Below, one piece after another: positions 52,240-59,542 of a stretch of 62,775 bases of DNA. Each line of letters opens with the position of its first letter. The stretch's first letter is position 1. Origin of the DNA: Thermoproteota archaeon (lineage in GTDB: Archaea; Asgardarchaeota; Jordiarchaeia; Jordiarchaeales; Freyrarchaeaceae); the NCBI GenBank assembly GCA_029258835.1, contig JAPDJY010000025.1, forward strand, positions 1-62,775, read 5' to 3'. Below the pieces are notes generated by a model. It did no database searches. It was given only the letters and a program-made list of their open reading frames with translations, and was not told where the DNA came from. A program made the position numbers and the translations under genes.

Positions 52240-52360
52240 CTATTTTCCCATGTACTCTTTTCTTACCCATTCAGAAATTTCGTTGAAGAGGCTTTGATAC
52301 GTCTGCTTCGTTCTCCATTTTAGCTCTCTTAGCCCTTGAATTGTCCACGTCATTGTCCCG
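52240..52360 (-). pseudogene. 3' remnant of the same SDR epimerase gene
   Basis: GRDNDVDNSRAK / RELKW...EISEWV resembles the SDR C-terminal DxSKAxxELGW motif. Confidence 0.6.
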
Positions 52361-53573
52361 CCGTTCTGACTCTCGCTAACTTTGGAACATTTGATAGTAA
52401 TTGTTAGCGGGAGTCTTCCCCCCTCTGGTTTCATTGAGGGGCTTTTGCGGGGAACGGAACTCCGCACATCTATCTTTTCTAATCCTCTTAACCTAATGTT
52501 ACATGCACCTATAACGTCTCTATCTGCTCCTAAGCCGCATTTCTTACATTTCATGATTCTATGCCCATTCAGGCTTAGCTTTTCCCCACATATCGGGCAT
52601 GTGCGAGAAGTTCCCTTAGCATCAACATAAATTACGGGAACTCCATTCAACTTAGCCTTATATTCAATAATTAATTGGAGTTTGCGGAAGCTCCATCTAT
52701 GTAGCCTTCCATTCATCTCACTAGAATATTTAATTTTTCTTCGAATATTTTTGAGGTTCTCAAGTGCTATTGCAGAATTGTTTTTCAATGCTTTTTTAAC
52801 AATACAGTTCGCAACCTTATGATAAACATCCAAAACCCTATTTTTCTCCCTCTCACCATATTTAGCTAAGAGCTTCCTCCTAGTTTTCCCAGTCTTAATT
52901 TTTGACTGTATTTTTCTACGCTTAAGAAAGTAAGCAGTCCTAATAGTTTTCTCCTTCGTAATCTTCTTATCAAAATCATCAAGCAAAGCTAACGTAACAT
53001 TATTCTCATTAACATCTACACCAACAACATCTATTACATTTCTAACTCAACTTCTTTCGAGAAGACAACATTCAAAAACAAACCATTACATTTCTTAATT
53101 AACCATGCTTGCCCAATTCTCCAATCTTTAAACCTTTCATGATATTTTCCATGTAGAAGCTTAACCTTAACTCTCCCATTTAAAGTAGCTATGCTTGCAT
53201 CCCTTTTTTCTAAGTTAATGGAGAATAAGTGGTCGTCGAGCATAACAACATCTCTTTTAAACACAGGTTTATCTCCTTTAGCTTTACCCTTGCGTTTAAG
53301 CTTCCTAAAAGACTTGTAGATTGAGCAAGCCATTTGGCAAGCAGTATAAACATAATGGGAAGGCAAATCAGGATATTTATGCCTTAACTCATAATACTTC
53401 TCTTTTTTAAGCCTTTTAAAAGAAGATATGTTCCTAAATGATATATAACCTAGCAGTTCGTTTAATATTTGCTTGTAAATAGTAAACAAACTTCCTAACC
53501 TGGTTTGAGGGGGAAGCTTGAAGCTTGCTGTAAGCCTAACAGTCTCTAATTGCTTTTTTGACATTTTCAACAA
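52240..53573 (-). pseudogene. tnpB: TnpB (RNA-guided RuvC nuclease), frameshifted near 53040
   Basis: N-half 53034-53573; RuvC-I VGVDVNENN in another frame; ALENL, TSRTCPICG, CKKCG..DRDxxGACNI. Confidence 0.88.
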
Positions 53574-54222
53574 CCCTCTTCTTATGGCTTCTCATTCCAT
53601 AAAGTCTATCAGCAAAAGATGTTATAATCGCTATTAGGCCCTCAACAAGTTCTTGTCGCATATCTTTTGGCTCTTCTCCAAAAATCGCCTCAACCTTAAC
53701 TCTATGAGGCTTAAAAAACAAAAACTTTTCAAGGTAGCTGAACCCGAATCTTGTCAACCTATCTTTGTAAGTTAAAACTACGATATCCACAGATGTACTT
53801 TCAACAAGTTTGAATAGCTTTCTTAAACCTCTACGCTTCTCATTTAAACCACTAGCTACGTTCGTCAAAACCTCAATGACTTTATAGCCTCTAGCTGAAC
53901 AATATTCCTGCAAATATTTAACTTGTCTTTCTAAATCATCTTTTTGGTCACTTGAAGAAACCCTTGCGTAGATAGCAGCCCTAGAAACAACTTCTCCCTC
54001 CCCTAAAAGCCTCATAATTTCGCTCTCAGATACTCTAAATTCTCCACCAACAGTTCTTTTAGCCTTAACTTTCCCAGCCTTAATCCACCTTCTAAGAGTC
54101 ATAGGATGAACTCCTAAAAGCTTGCCGCCTCACCAGTTCTATAAAGCCGCTCCATTTCAATCAAACTTACCATGCATATGAAAGTATATAATGTTTCGAA
54201 AGTTTCACTTTATGTTACTGCC
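52361..54222 (-). mobile_element. IS607-family element (serine-recombinase tnpA + tnpB), decayed
   Basis: AT-rich block; ends GG-CAGTAAC... and ...CAGAAC-GG on the minus strand; subterminal AATGTT(T)C(G/C)AAAGTT imperfect inverted repeats; boundaries approximate. Confidence 0.85.
53536..54155 (-). pseudogene. tnpA: IS607 TnpA serine recombinase, 1-nt frameshift in the N-terminal HTH
   Basis: MERLYRTGEAA (54155) out of frame with LLGVHPMTLRRW; YARVSS, DRLTRFG. Confidence 0.85.
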
Positions 54223-55071: not shown

Positions 55072-56034
55072 ATGAAAGGGGCGGTGTACATTATGCAGGT
55101 CAGCGAGGAGAAGGCTGCATCAAGGCTTCAAGAGGAAATTTTAAAGTTGAAGGAGCGGGAAAACGCCATCATACTCGCACACAACTATCAAACCATAGAG
55201 ATTCAGGAGATAGCGGATGCTGTTGGAGACAGCCTTGAACTTGCAAGGATAGCACAGAGAAACAAGGATGCTGATATTATAATTTTTTCAGCAGTCAGGT
55301 TTATGGCGGAGACCGCCGCTATCCTGAACCCGGACAGGGAAGTTTACATTCCAGACCCTACAGCTAGATGTCCAATGGCCTTAATGTGTCCTAGAGAGCT
55401 GGTAGCCGAGGTGAAGAAGATGCATAGGGGGATACCCGTGGTCCTTTACGTGAACACGCTTGCGGAGGCGAAGGCTGAAGCGGACATCATGTGCACTTCA
55501 GCTAACGCAGCCAAGGTAGTTGAAAAGCTAGGTGCCCCCCAAGTCGTGTTCGGGCCAGACAGGAACCTGGGGTTGTACGTTGAGAGGATTACAGGGGTTA
55601 AAACGATACCGGTTCCAGAGGATGGCTACTGCTACGTTCATCGCATGTTTAAACCCCAGCACATTTTAAAACTGAGAGGGGAGCATCCAGATGCCGTGGT
55701 CATGGTTCACCCGGAGTGCGTGCCAGAAGTCCAAGAGAACGCCGACTTTATAGGGTCTACGAGTCAGATGTACAGGTACGCTGAGGAGTCAGGGAGGGAA
55801 AAGTTCATTGTTGGAACTGAAGTGGGCCTCGTGGAGAGGATGCGGAGAGAGATCGGAGGAGGGAAAGTGTTTATTCCATTGCTGGACAAAGCAATATGTG
55901 AAAACATGAAAAAGAACACCTTAGAAAAGATAAGAGATGTCTTACTGAAAAAGAGAAGCGAAAACTTGGTGATGGTTCCAGAAGAAGTGGCGGAAAAGGC
56001 GAGGAAGGGAATAGAGAGGATGCTTAGGCTTTAG
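55072..56034 (+). CDS. nadA: Quinolinate synthase
   Basis: ILAHNYQ, GDSL, VRFMAE, CPMA, YVNT, HPEC, GSTS, C.NMK. Confidence 0.96.
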   Translation: MKGAVYIMQVSEEKAASRLQEEILKLKERENAIILAHNYQTIEIQEIADAVGDSLELARIAQRNKDADIIIFSAVRFMAETAAILNPDREVYIPDPTARCPMALMCPRELVAEVKKMHRGIPVVLYVNTLAEAKAEADIMCTSANAAKVVEKLGAPQVVFGPDRNLGLYVERITGVKTIPVPEDGYCYVHRMFKPQHILKLRGEHPDAVVMVHPECVPEVQENADFIGSTSQMYRYAEESGREKFIVGTEVGLVERMRREIGGGKVFIPLLDKAICENMKKNTLEKIRDVLLKKRSENLVMVPEEVAEKARKGIERMLRL

Positions 56035-56041
56035 AGGGGAA

Positions 56042-56080
56042 ACGCGGCACCTGAAGGTTGAAAGCCTTTCCGCGTCTTTT
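56042..56080 (+). terminator. Hairpin + T-run after nadA
   Basis: ACGCGG...GAAGGTT-GAA-AGCCTTT-CCGCGT followed by CTTTT. Confidence 0.4.
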
Positions 56081-56204
56081 AACTTTCTTAGTAAAGGGTT
56101 GAAGGCTTGGGTGAGGGTGGCAATAGAAGTTATGTTTCCTAGAATGCTGCTGCCATTTGCATGTCCTTTCCAAAAAAGATTTAGAATAGAGGGCGTATTT
56201 AATC

Positions 56205-56468
56205 TTGGTGGGAGAAAAGTTGGGTACTATGACTGTGCCAATACCTCATAGGTTCGCGATAACCAAAGTTAGGATAGTTGGCGAGTGGAGTTGGGACCAG
56301 AAGTGTGTTATATGCCTCGGCGACATAAAGCCTGGAGAGAAGATCTTGATGTGTCCCAAGTGCGGTGCAATAGGACATGAAGACCACTTTTTAGAGTGGA
56401 TAAAGGTGAAGGCGCTGTGCCCAAATTGTAGAAGTATCCTGAGGGAGAAAGACTTAAAGAGGTTTTAA
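56205..56468 (+). CDS. Small RING-finger E3 ubiquitin ligase
   Basis: CVIC...CPKC...HEDH..EW...CPNCR; first gene of the Ub operon. Confidence 0.88.
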   Translation: MVGEKLGTMTVPIPHRFAITKVRIVGEWSWDQKCVICLGDIKPGEKILMCPKCGAIGHEDHFLEWIKVKALCPNCRSILREKDLKRF

Positions 56469-56481
56469 GGAGGAGGACGGC

Positions 56482-56715
56482 GTGATCGTTAGGGTGGTTT
56501 CAGCTATTGGAGGAGACGTCTGGGAGATGGATCTCCCCCCTGAAACCGACATAGGAAAACTTAAGAGGGAGGTTGCCAAAAAAAGGAAGGTTTCCCCGAA
56601 CATGATAGCTATAGCATTCAGGGGTATGCAGCTTGACGACGATGTCACCCTTAAAGAGGCGGGAGTAGAAGAATACGACAAACTCTATGTAATAACCCGG
56701 ACTGAGGGTGGATGA
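56482..56715 (+). CDS. Ubiquitin-like protein with free C-terminal GG
   Basis: Beta-grasp pattern, FRGMQLDDDVTLKEAGV, ends TRTEGG-stop. Confidence 0.92.
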   Translation: MIVRVVSAIGGDVWEMDLPPETDIGKLKREVAKKRKVSPNMIAIAFRGMQLDDDVTLKEAGVEEYDKLYVITRTEGG

Positions 56716-56739
56716 ACAGTAGGACTTGGGGGGCTAAAA

Positions 56740-57201
56740 ATATTAACGGACGAGCAGTTTTACGCCCGCCTGGTTTACGAGGCTAAGCTGCTGGAGAAAG
56801 AGGAGCCGACGTTTAAACCGGTGAATGGAGACTTAACCCATTGGAAGGGTGTCATCTTAGGGACGGGAGTGTATGATGGAGGAGTGTTTGAGATAGAGAT
56901 ATTCATACCCAGAGACTACCCGTTTAAACCCCCCAAGGTTTTTTGGAACACCCCCATATGGCACCCTAACATAAATAGGCGTGAAGTATGCGTGGGTATA
57001 CTGGGGAAAGAATGGACGCCTAACACAACGATCGTTGGGGTTATAGAGGCGCTAAGAACCCTCCTAAACTTCCCGAACCCTCACTCCCCTCTTAACACTA
57101 ATGCTGCAAGGCAGATGCTTAGGGACATGAAAAAGTTCAGAAGGAAGGTTAAAGAGTACATTGAAAAGTATGCCACGTGGCAGAAGGTTCTGAAAGGATA
57201 A
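56740..57201 (+). CDS. Ubiquitin-conjugating enzyme E2 (start uncertain; ATA at 56740 proposed)
   Basis: YPFKPPKV, WHPNI...VCVGIL...W; helix-1-like YARLVYEAKLL lies upstream of the GTG at 56821. Confidence 0.9.
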   Translation: MLTDEQFYARLVYEAKLLEKEEPTFKPVNGDLTHWKGVILGTGVYDGGVFEIEIFIPRDYPFKPPKVFWNTPIWHPNINRREVCVGILGKEWTPNTTIVGVIEALRTLLNFPNPHSPLNTNAARQMLRDMKKFRRKVKEYIEKYATWQKVLKG

Positions 57202-57223
57202 AGGGAAGAGTAAGGTTGGTGGA

Positions 57224-58222
57224 ATGAGGGAGGACAGGTATCACAGGCAGCGTCTCCTGAAGGAGTGGAGTCAGGAGAAGGTTAGAGGGTCTACTGTTTT
57301 CATTGCTGGAGTAGGGGCTTTAGGATCCGTGGTGGCCCTAAACTTGGTGATGATGGGGGTTGGGGAAATACTTATTGCAGACTACGACACGGTTGAAGTC
57401 TCCAACCTGAACAGGCAGCTTCTCTTCAAGGAGGACGATGTTGGACGGAACAAGGCTGAAGCCGCTAGGGATGCACTCTTGGAAGTTAACCCTGACGTGA
57501 AGGTTGAAGCCTTCCCGGTCGACATAGCAGAGGTTCCAAGGGAGCATTATGAGAAGTGCGACGTGATAGTAGACGGACTAGATACTTTCGAGGCTAGACG
57601 ATGGATAAACTCTCTAGCTGTAGAGTTAAAGAAGCCGCTTGTGCACGGTGGAATGTATGGGTGGTGGGGGAACGTTCAGGTGGTGATACCTTACGTTACA
57701 CCGTGCCTTGAATGTCAACCGCTAATCCCAGAAGACAGGCTGATGCAGATTTGCACCCCCTTAGGGGTGAAAAGGAAGAAGAGGGAAAGGGTAAAGGTGA
57801 GGGAGGCGCTCCCTGCAGTCGTCACTGTTAGCTGCGTGATAGGTGGTATACAGTCGCAGGAAGTTGTAAAGATCCTTCTTGGCTTGAAGCCGCTCGACAG
57901 CTTCCTGTTCTATGACGGTTTAAACCAGGCGTTCACCTTAGTTCCGCTTAGAAGGAATCCTAAATGTGTTGTTTGCGGTGAGGAGTACGCTTTGAAAGGG
58001 GTGGAGTACGCCTTGGATCCGGAGGAAACGGTAGGGGAGCTTAAAGGCAGGCTTAGCGCTACGTGGGGGCTAAGGGAGCCTGTAAGGCTCGTTTACAAGG
58101 CAAGGTTAATAGAGGGCGACGATAAGAAAATAAAAGAGTTGAACGTTAAGAGCGGAGACGTACTCTTCGTTTACGATCAAAGCAGGGCTAAGCCAGTAAA
58201 AATAACGGTTAAGATCTCATGA
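57224..58222 (+). CDS. Ubiquitin-activating enzyme E1 (ThiF) with C-terminal ubiquitin-fold domain
   Basis: RYHRQ, GVGALG, SNLNRQ, CLEC, candidate catalytic ICT, CVVC, C-terminal Ubl-like domain. Confidence 0.92.
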   Translation: MREDRYHRQRLLKEWSQEKVRGSTVFIAGVGALGSVVALNLVMMGVGEILIADYDTVEVSNLNRQLLFKEDDVGRNKAEAARDALLEVNPDVKVEAFPVDIAEVPREHYEKCDVIVDGLDTFEARRWINSLAVELKKPLVHGGMYGWWGNVQVVIPYVTPCLECQPLIPEDRLMQICTPLGVKRKKRERVKVREALPAVVTVSCVIGGIQSQEVVKILLGLKPLDSFLFYDGLNQAFTLVPLRRNPKCVVCGEEYALKGVEYALDPEETVGELKGRLSATWGLREPVRLVYKARLIEGDDKKIKELNVKSGDVLFVYDQSRAKPVKITVKIS

Positions 58223-58354
58223 AGTCTTTTCTCGTCTCTCCTTTCGGTAGCAGTGAACGCAGAGAAAGTGGGTTTTCTGGCAGTCGACTGGAAGAACTTT
58301 AGGGAACTCGTAGCCGCACTCAGGACACTTCACTTTTTTTATCCTGTAGGGCAA
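58217..58354 (-). CDS. Small zinc-ribbon protein (45 aa)
   Basis: TTG at 58354; KCPECG...LCVHCY; stop adjoins the E1 stop in TCATGA. Confidence 0.55.
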   Translation of the reverse strand: MPYRIKKVKCPECGYEFPKVLPVDCQKTHFLCVHCYRKERREKTS

Positions 58355-58426
58355 GGCTGCATCCCCGGCTTTAGCCTTGAGAAAGCTATGTTTGGATGTT
58401 TGGGTACGCATATAAAACTGCTGGTC

Positions 58427-59542
58427 TTACGTAAGGAAGTCCACGATCTTCCTTTCGAGCTTTGAGAGAGCTCTGAGAACGATCGGTTTCTTGAAAACCA
58501 ACTCTAATTCTACGAGTAAGGTGAAGAGAATGATGGTGGACGACACGTAGTCGTTTGCGAGGAAATAGCCTAGGGCGCCAAGGGAGCCATAGAAGCCTAT
58601 GATGGTTGCAGTTATGACTTTTAACCTTTCCTCCCACGCCCCCCCGCTTCGCTTAAGGTACATTACAAATCCTAAGGGAGCTAACGTGACGAAGAGAAGC
58701 AGGTAAACGAGCGCGCCTACCTCAGGGAAACCCTCATACTGGTAGGAGTAAGGCAACCACCAGGCAATCTGAAGGAGAGTTAAGATGGAAACGTCAACTA
58801 CTGGAACGTAACGTTTCACCTTCCTCCCGCCTCCCTCATATTCCCCCCCAAGTAACGTCCTCGAGTGCGACCTGTCCTTCACCCTCTTAACAGATAAAAT
58901 GGCGAATACTGCTATGAGAGACGCGACCGCTAACGCCGCCTCCAGCCTAGGTTTAAAATGCTGTGTCACTGAGACGTAGATCGGATTTCCAACGTAGAGA
59001 GCCGCCAAGTAGGTTAAGACGAGTAGGTATTTTCTTCTTGTCAGAATTGGGCCTCTATTCCTCGGGAAGTACCGGTCTACTATTAGGAAGGTTAGGGTTA
59101 CCGTGTAAACGGCGTGGAAGACTGTTAGGAAGGTAGCCCAGACAGTGTTTAACCCCAGGAAACGGCCGTATCCAGGCTTAAGCCACTCGGTGACTGGGGC
59201 ATAGAACGTTAACGTCATCACCCCCTCTTCCAGCAGTCCAAAGAGAACGCCTAGAAAGAAGACGTCCTTGTAGTTGAGGTCGAAACGAGAGTAAATATCT
59301 TCCAGTATTAGGAGTTGGAGGGCGTAATACATGAACGTGACAACAATGTTTGACGGATAAAGGAACTCATACGGGAAAGTCCCCATGGATACTGCCTCAG
59401 CGTTCCATGCACCCACCAAAACTAATGCTAGACATCTTCTCAGAGAGAAGCGTCTCTCGGCGACTGCAAGGCTTGGCTCAGCCCTCAACTCCTCTCCCCC
59501 TCTTCCAGAGCAAGCCGTAGGGAAACCTTTTGTAACCAACAT
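58427..59542 (-). CDS. Polytopic membrane protein of unknown function
   Basis: ~9-10 TM segments; LGxxFGLLEEG and GxNxxW...FHAV motifs. Confidence 0.75.
   Translation of the reverse strand: MLVTKGFPTACSGRGGEELRAEPSLAVAERRFSLRRCLALVLVGAWNAEAVSMGTFPYEFLYPSNIVVTFMYYALQLLILEDIYSRFDLNYKDVFFLGVLFGLLEEGVMTLTFYAPVTEWLKPGYGRFLGLNTVWATFLTVFHAVYTVTLTFLIVDRYFPRNRGPILTRRKYLLVLTYLAALYVGNPIYVSVTQHFKPRLEAALAVASLIAVFAILSVKRVKDRSHSRTLLGGEYEGGGRKVKRYVPVVDVSILTLLQIAWWLPYSYQYEGFPEVGALVYLLLFVTLAPLGFVMYLKRSGGAWEERLKVITATIIGFYGSLGALGYFLANDYVSSTIILFTLLVELELVFKKPIVLRALSKLERKIVDFLT

Follow-up and report, generated by a model that had tools for sequence, protein, structure and literature searches.

The gene for the ubiquitin-conjugating enzyme (E2) in the ubiquitylation operon of a Jordarchaeia-type Asgard archaeon has no ATG, GTG or TTG at its beginning. 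Comparison with related loci indicates that its translation very probably starts at an ATA codon, at position 56740, behind a strong Shine-Dalgarno (SD) sequence and as a cistron separate from the preceding ubiquitin gene. Fusion of ubiquitin to E2, a frameshift and an error in the assembly can almost certainly be dismissed.

The operon consists of genes for a RING protein, ubiquitin, E2 and E1, in this order, and occupies positions 56205-58222 of the window on the + strand. By the window we mean the whole stretch of 62,775 nucleotides that was analysed, which is contig C11 of a 2.72-Mb metagenome-assembled genome (MAG) with a completeness of 94.7%. The nearest named homologues are proteins from Jordarchaeia/Freyarchaeota MAGs, and the gene order is kept in most related loci. 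The genes and sequence elements are as follows.

56205-56468, + strand: operon gene 1, encoding a small RING-finger (E3-like) protein (Pfam zf-RING_2, 3.9e-08; Prok-RING_1, 1e-06).
56482-56715, + strand: ubiquitin gene with a GTG start, 77 aa, ending in ...TEGG followed by TGA at 56713-56715 (Pfam ubiquitin, 2.1e-11).
56728-56733, + strand: SD-like run of six G (G6), 6 nt upstream of ATA (-9.0 kcal/mol for the duplex with the 3' end of 16S rRNA).
56736-56740, + strand: A5 run, read from the sequence.
56740-56742, + strand: ATA, proposed as the E2 start (34 of 68 loci have ATG at the aligned position).
56740-57201, + strand: redefined coding sequence of the UBC-fold E2, 153 aa and a TAA stop (Pfam UQ_con, 1.8e-34).
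56749-56802, + strand: region encoding helix alpha-1 of E2, residues 4-21 (DSSP on the AlphaFold model).
56791-56793, + strand: internal CTG, apparently the start of the public 136-aa call P0001, which begins MEKEEPTFKPV.
56821-56823, + strand: GTG (Val28), the first canonical in-frame start, judged internal; it lies 3' of helix 1, in strand beta-1.
56962-56970, + strand: HPN motif of E2.
56989-56991, + strand: TGC codon of the catalytic Cys of E2.
57224-58222, + strand: ThiF-type E1 with a C-terminal ubiquitin-like domain (Pfam ThiF, 7e-67).

The C-terminal domain of E1 (residues 260-316) matches the Pfam ubiquitin family at 7.5e-05. Converging on the end of the E1 gene and overlapping it, a 64-aa Cys-rich ORF (58217-58411, - strand) has a weak match to a RING/U-box-like zinc ribbon (zf-RING_14, E = 0.0016); its product might serve the cascade as another small RING-type partner. 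Just 5' of the operon neighbourhood, the translations point to an IS607-like element (52240-54102, - strand), in which an ORF for a serine recombinase (53536-54102), bearing an HTH at its N-terminus, comes before a TnpB-like protein that is apparently split into ORFs 53034-53573 and 52240-52986.

Ubiquitin (56482-56715) and E2 share one frame across the TGA at 56713-56715, and this frame reads ...ITRTEGG-TGA-TVGLGGLKILTDEQFYARLVYEAKLLEKEEPTFKPV(GTG 56821)NGDLTHW. The initial annotation, which had described the two genes as in frame across a single TGA and had found no canonical start of E2 before GTG 56821, is exact on both points: between 56716 and 56820 this frame contains no ATG, GTG or TTG. 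The ORF listing opens E2 at GTG 56821, yielding 126 aa, while ATG 56712 opens another frame that reaches a stop after 24 codons. The Pfam UQ_con match begins at residue 28 of the frame counted from 56716, which corresponds to profile position 14; this means that the preceding ~13 profile positions, covering helix 1, are encoded upstream. As 18 of the 68 related E2 loci (see below) likewise lack a canonical start at this position, its absence here is more than a chance event.

To locate the beginning of the coding region, we compared the codons with those of five relatives from the same family or order. Counted from ATA, codons 2-27 show 9-15 synonymous and 3-12 non-synonymous differences; in the comparison with locus L003, nine of these codons are identical, 14 differ synonymously and three non-synonymously. 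In the eight codons between TGA and ATA, almost all differences are non-synonymous, the G-run excepted. Codons 2-27 are thus under purifying selection and the eight upstream codons are not, so that the coding constraint begins at ATA. Strain variants, present in three of the four runs, change CTG to TTA (56770 C>T and 56772 G>A) in two runs and to CTA in the third, and all of them are synonymous in the E2 frame.

The AlphaFold model of the 153-aa product translated from ATA has a mean pLDDT of 90.9. By DSSP, helix 1 comprises residues 4-21 of the model, and strand 1, residues 26-28; helix 1 is therefore encoded upstream of GTG 56821, as had been proposed from its sequence. In the match to UbcH5b/UBE2D from PDB (2e-29), residue 21 of the chain is aligned to residue 24 of E2. 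Together with the modelled helix, this correspondence argues that initiation at ATA gives a normal E2 N-terminus, the canonical one of the UBC fold as judged from the model, while initiation at GTG 56821 (residue 28) would delete both helix 1 and strand 1. The HPN motif and the catalytic Cys are invariant in the alignment, and the protein has the features of the UBC fold.

For the comparison across Asgard archaea, we used 20 E2 loci from related genomes and 58 from named Asgard MAGs, which gave 68 non-identical loci after anchoring on the conserved motif xLxxExF..RL..E. At the position of 56740, 34 loci have ATG, 15 have ATA, three each have ATT and TTG, two have GTG and one has CTG, and in ten more loci the start is one codon further upstream. 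Among the 20 loci from related genomes, 12 have an in-frame ATA or ATT at this codon. These homologous codons strongly support one of the options listed in the initial annotation, that is, a start at ATA 56740 with the G-run as its SD. In the alignment of the junction in relatives, suggested there as a check, the position of the ATA/ATG codon is kept and the frame relation between ubiquitin and E2 varies.

In some loci the reading frame itself leaves little choice of a start. The frame of L075 reads TGA AAA ATT, and in L065, L070 and L072 a TAG precedes the near-cognate start by three codons; ATA/ATT is thereby almost the only possible start in these four. The in-frame stop is only two or three codons upstream of the start in some Heimdall loci, and six codons upstream of the near-cognate start in L017 and L043. 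Counting against the ATA reading, L002 has an in-frame GTG five codons upstream, a possible alternative start in that locus.

On the E2 tree, inferred with the first residue omitted, the distribution of ATA/ATT versus canonical starts takes at least five changes, at least four of which are forced by well-supported (starred) branches. By this tree, ATA/ATT starts of E2 arose at least four to five times, and they persist within clades. ATA/ATT is kept throughout the Odin clade (4/4) and the f2 clade (6/6, with interchange of ATA and ATT), and one Heimdall clade has three ATA and one ATT. As every ubiquitin, E1 and RING gene of the compared loci has a canonical start, the non-canonical start is specific to E2 within the operon. 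The loci also differ in the gap between the ubiquitin stop and the E2 start, which is ~20-30 nt in Jord, Baldr and Odin, ~175 nt in f2 (L006-L010), and ~198 nt in many Hermod/Thor/Loki-type loci (L038-L060, Hermod/Thor/Promethearchaeota).

The genome's own 16S rRNA has the 3' end AUCACCUCCU, with the terminus ...GGATCACCTCCT. In this genome, SD-type motifs are most frequent at -12/-11 from the start, as counted upstream of 1,248 confident starts. The G6 run, which pairs with the 3' end of the 16S rRNA, spans positions -12 to -7 from ATA. Hence, the SD of E2 stands at the spacing preferred in the genome. A G-rich SD-like run (GGGGGG, GGTGGG or GGGGT) is located ~6-7 nt upstream of the codon in 17 of the 18 ATA/ATT loci, the remaining one, L044, having only a weak run. 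The mean energy of the SD duplex is -7.9 kcal/mol in ATA/ATT loci vs. -5.5 kcal/mol in ATG loci, for loci that are phylogenetically non-independent; the stronger SDs of the ATA/ATT loci are therefore suggestive, but confounded by lineage.

Several other explanations of the junction have to be weighed against initiation at ATA. One would be an N-terminally truncated E2 starting at GTG 56821 (or CTG 56791), with the upstream frame non-coding. GTG 56821 is the first canonical start, and short versions are present in public records (P0001, 136 aa; P0005, 137 aa; P0017, P0020 and P0021, 135 aa). However, the strong purifying selection on codons 2-27 (14 synonymous vs. three non-synonymous differences in L003), the helix alpha-1 and strand beta-1 that these codons encode in a high-confidence model, the ATG-start orthologues that begin at the position of ATA, and the lack of an SD before GTG 56821 make a truncated enzyme very improbable. 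The CTG 56791 start of P0001, which comes from a 99%-identical strain, was judged a mis-call; ACG 56746, considered as another near-cognate start, is 12 nt from the SD and unconserved, and was rejected. A further proposal, readthrough of UGA 56713 by a near-cognate tRNA or as selenocysteine (Sec), would produce a ubiquitin-E2 polyprotein cleaved after Gly-Gly. It is suggested by the single TGA separating the two in-frame genes, by the Sec-recoding machinery of Jordarchaeia, where a few genes have UGA decoded as Sec (PMC9723677), and by a gene for a JAB-domain protease in this genome, found only on another contig (C31). Still, ubiquitin and E2 are in frame in three of the 14 adjacent loci, less than the one in three expected by chance, and these three loci have three different stops, TGA, TAG and TAA. 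As neither the frame relation nor the stop codon is conserved, both readthrough and a +1 shift are disfavoured. Besides, the eight codons after TGA are not conserved as protein, and E2 genes starting with ATA/ATT also occur without an adjacent ubiquitin gene. No fused (longer) E2 homologues were found at E <= 1e-15, which is weak evidence, and the Rfam scan of 56000-58600, with a collection that may lack Asgard SECIS models, yielded no SECIS or other element except a chance match to a C/D snoRNA (E = 0.42) inside the E1 gene. The RNA fold at the junction is not unusual (MFE -27.1 kcal/mol, z = -0.28 vs. shuffles). Taken with the three in-frame loci, these results leave the polyprotein a slim chance at best. 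Finally, translation could begin at ATG 56712 and undergo a programmed +1 shift in the G6 or A5 run, or a homopolymer error in the assembly could hide a start of the ATGA overlap type. This ATG does overlap the ubiquitin stop (GGATGA), as is common at operon junctions, and would come into frame if either the G run or the A run were a base shorter. But the overlapping ATG and the GGATGA are absent in L002-L005, the frame relations differ, and the ubiquitin genes of relatives end in GGC TAG, TGG TGA or GGT TAG, which argues against a +1 shift; an in-frame ATA or ATT at the same codon in 12 of the relatives' 20 loci is inexplicable by an assembly error. Furthermore, the stretch 56716-56745 is free of indels and other changes in the Logan contigs of three DNA studies (one of them at depth 49), and one metatranscriptome contig (56719-57188), which shows only presence in an RNA library, has the same G6, A5 and ATA. 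The agreement between three DNA studies and one RNA run speaks against an assembly error: the sequence is correct, at the contig level, in independent assemblies, and the G-run, another length of which would have indicated an error, is G6 in all these contigs. The homopolymer error is thus refuted at the contig level, and we consider a hidden overlap start, by frameshift or by error, extremely improbable.

Termination-reinitiation differs from these proposals in that it retains AUA 56740 as the start codon, but supplies it mostly with ribosomes fresh from termination at the ubiquitin stop, 24 nt upstream; the E2 output would then be tied to ubiquitin translation, with little de novo SD-led initiation. 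Coupled reinitiation generally tolerates weak starts, and in Jord and Odin loci the ubiquitin stop is -26 to +24 nt from ATA. However, in f2 and Heimdall loci ATA/ATT starts are also found 84-276 nt from the end of the closest upstream ORF, or with no such ORF, and these include Heimdall loci whose E2 gene adjoins neither ubiquitin nor E1; moreover, ATA/ATT loci carry an SD-like run of their own (weak in L044). The f2 and Heimdall loci, with the upstream ORF distant or missing, rule out coupling as the general basis of these starts. As the main route to E2 at this locus we regard it as unlikely, although it may contribute here as a local variant.

To see whether the organism can initiate at AUH codons, we scanned the whole MAG for SD-preceded codons in coding-like 5' extensions that lack a canonical start for 10 codons or more. 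The scan recovered the ATA site of E2. Of 58 codons, ATT ranked first (8/39, with a background of ~8%), and there was no excess over the background of SD-preceded ATA (5/53) or CTG (4/47). Accordingly, initiation at ATA or CTG is not claimed to be widespread; AUA starts are rare in this genome.

Three other hits of the scan, compared with their homologues, illustrate AUH starts, and a fourth gene is a candidate. The fusion of MeaB GTPase with ATP:corrinoid adenosyltransferase (CobA/CobO; 500 aa, C17:14625-16124, - strand) has no canonical start for 65 codons and has ATT-ATT behind GGAAGGAGG, while its relatives have ATG. The LarB-like gene of the AIR carboxylase family (C4:20946-21752, - strand) has an ATT start behind GAGGAGGG; the start is ATA in four sister-genus genomes and ATG or TTG in other families. 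The gene for a 377-aa protein without a Pfam family (C8:52105-53235, - strand) starts with ATT, with a stop one codon upstream; its relatives have ATA in four of four sister-genus genomes, again with a stop one codon upstream, and ATT in f2, the AUH start being maintained throughout an order. In the enolase-superfamily (MR/MLE) gene (C19:50926-52008, + strand), a candidate ATT/ATA start stands behind GGTGGTGA, where ATT ATA is two codons past a stop and the next canonical start is 21 codons downstream. ATT starts in at least three other genes, with ATG or ATA in relatives, imply that the organism uses AUH starts, and AUA and AUU are, as judged by homology, genuine but rare start codons of this lineage, aIF1 notwithstanding.

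More generally, the start spectrum of the 1,248 confident ORFs, a crude one obtained by taking the first canonical start within eight codons of the upstream stop, is nearly even (ATG 455, GTG 406, TTG 387). The share of ATG is unusually low in this genome, and goes together with a strong SD signal. Using aragorn, we found 25 tRNA genes in the MAG, an incomplete set, among which there is one initiator-like tRNA-Met(CAT) with an ordinary anticodon loop and no unusual initiator tRNA.

Both ATA and ATT are listed as initiators in NCBI table 11. In Escherichia coli, infC and pcnB have AUU starts, and in Staphylococcus aureus, infC (AUA), ccpN (AUA), cvfC1 (AUU) and citZ (AUA) start behind extended SDs; the weak starts of both species are established as attenuating (PMC13009471; PMC4705826). 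AUA/AUU reporters in S. aureus yield about 10% of the AUG level (PMC13009471), and aIF1 of Saccharolobus selects against AUU (review, PMC4705826). The E2 start resembles the bacterial AUU/AUA starts in having AUH where orthologues have AUG, a strong SD at the optimal spacing, a weak codon conserved across related species, and an expected attenuation. Unlike the bacterial genes, E2 is archaeal, has the eukaryote-type factors aIF1 and aIF2 where bacteria have IF3, and encodes a ubiquitin-conjugating enzyme. Unlike infC, it has no sign of an autoregulatory loop, and the efficiency has been measured in bacteria, whereas the E2 start is known from sequence.

The operon itself is of a described type, similar to the RING-ubiquitin-E2-E1 ubiquitylation operon of Caldiarchaeum subterraneum. 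It shares with that operon and with those of other Asgard archaea the gene set and order, an E2 with the HPN motif and the catalytic Cys, and a ThiF-type E1. Asgard clusters of ubiquitin, E1, E2 and E3 genes have been surveyed, and the start codon of E2 is not mentioned in the descriptions of Asgard ubiquitin systems that were consulted (PMC9192718). What is new compared to the described operons is the non-AUG start of E2 and its recurrence.

In one public record, the start has been placed at ATA: NCBI annotates the Odinarchaeota E2 P0018 (JAWBON010000034.1) from this codon with an initiator Met, in a single automated call. P0018 is identical to the product of L043 except for M instead of I at residue 1, and is an orthologue of the E2 studied here with the start at the same codon position. 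Other records of the orthologue are called short (P0001, P0005, P0012, P0017, P0020, P0021, P0026 and P0034) and begin at internal CTG, ATG or GTG codons.

Returning to initiation at ATA 56740, the G6 SD would place the small ribosomal subunit 6 nt upstream of AUA, which the initiator tRNA would decode as Met, and the product would be an ordinary 153-aa UBC-fold E2 with helix 1 from residue 4. By analogy with bacterial AUA/AUU starts, initiation at AUA would be less efficient than at AUG and would keep the synthesis of E2 low relative to ubiquitin and E1. The genome encodes aIF1 (SUI1), and hence AUA initiation should be inefficient. It is plausible that the weak start would tune the ubiquitin:E2 stoichiometry, as the initial annotation had proposed for this start among others. 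A tentative extension, which we hold to be possible rather than probable, is that AUA/AUU of E2 is a selected translational attenuator that has arisen repeatedly (Jord, f2, Odin, Heimdall), and that it keeps E2 far below ubiquitin and E1, in an amount tied to initiation fidelity via aIF1. If so, the ubiquitylation capacity would follow the cell's initiation fidelity, and thus its stress or growth state, and control of the infC/ccpN type would have an archaeal counterpart in E2, with a eukaryote-like ubiquitin cascade as its target.

The practical consequence concerns annotation. Standard gene finders shorten the E2 orthologues that start with ATA/ATT by 18-40 residues, and public collections contain versions of 114-141 aa that lack helix 1, the E1/E3-binding helix. 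E2 proteins cloned from such records for biochemistry would be crippled enzymes. As for translation, the E2 start is further evidence that AUA/AUU behind a strong SD is accepted by archaea whose initiation factors are of the eukaryote type. As judged from the loci compared, the same weak start recurs in E2 in at least four Asgard lineages, with the operon partners canonical. Such recurrence beside the canonical starts of ubiquitin, E1 and RING suggests that a low dose of E2 is favoured in Asgard cascades, and makes the weak E2 start a testable handle on how ubiquitin cascades are balanced.
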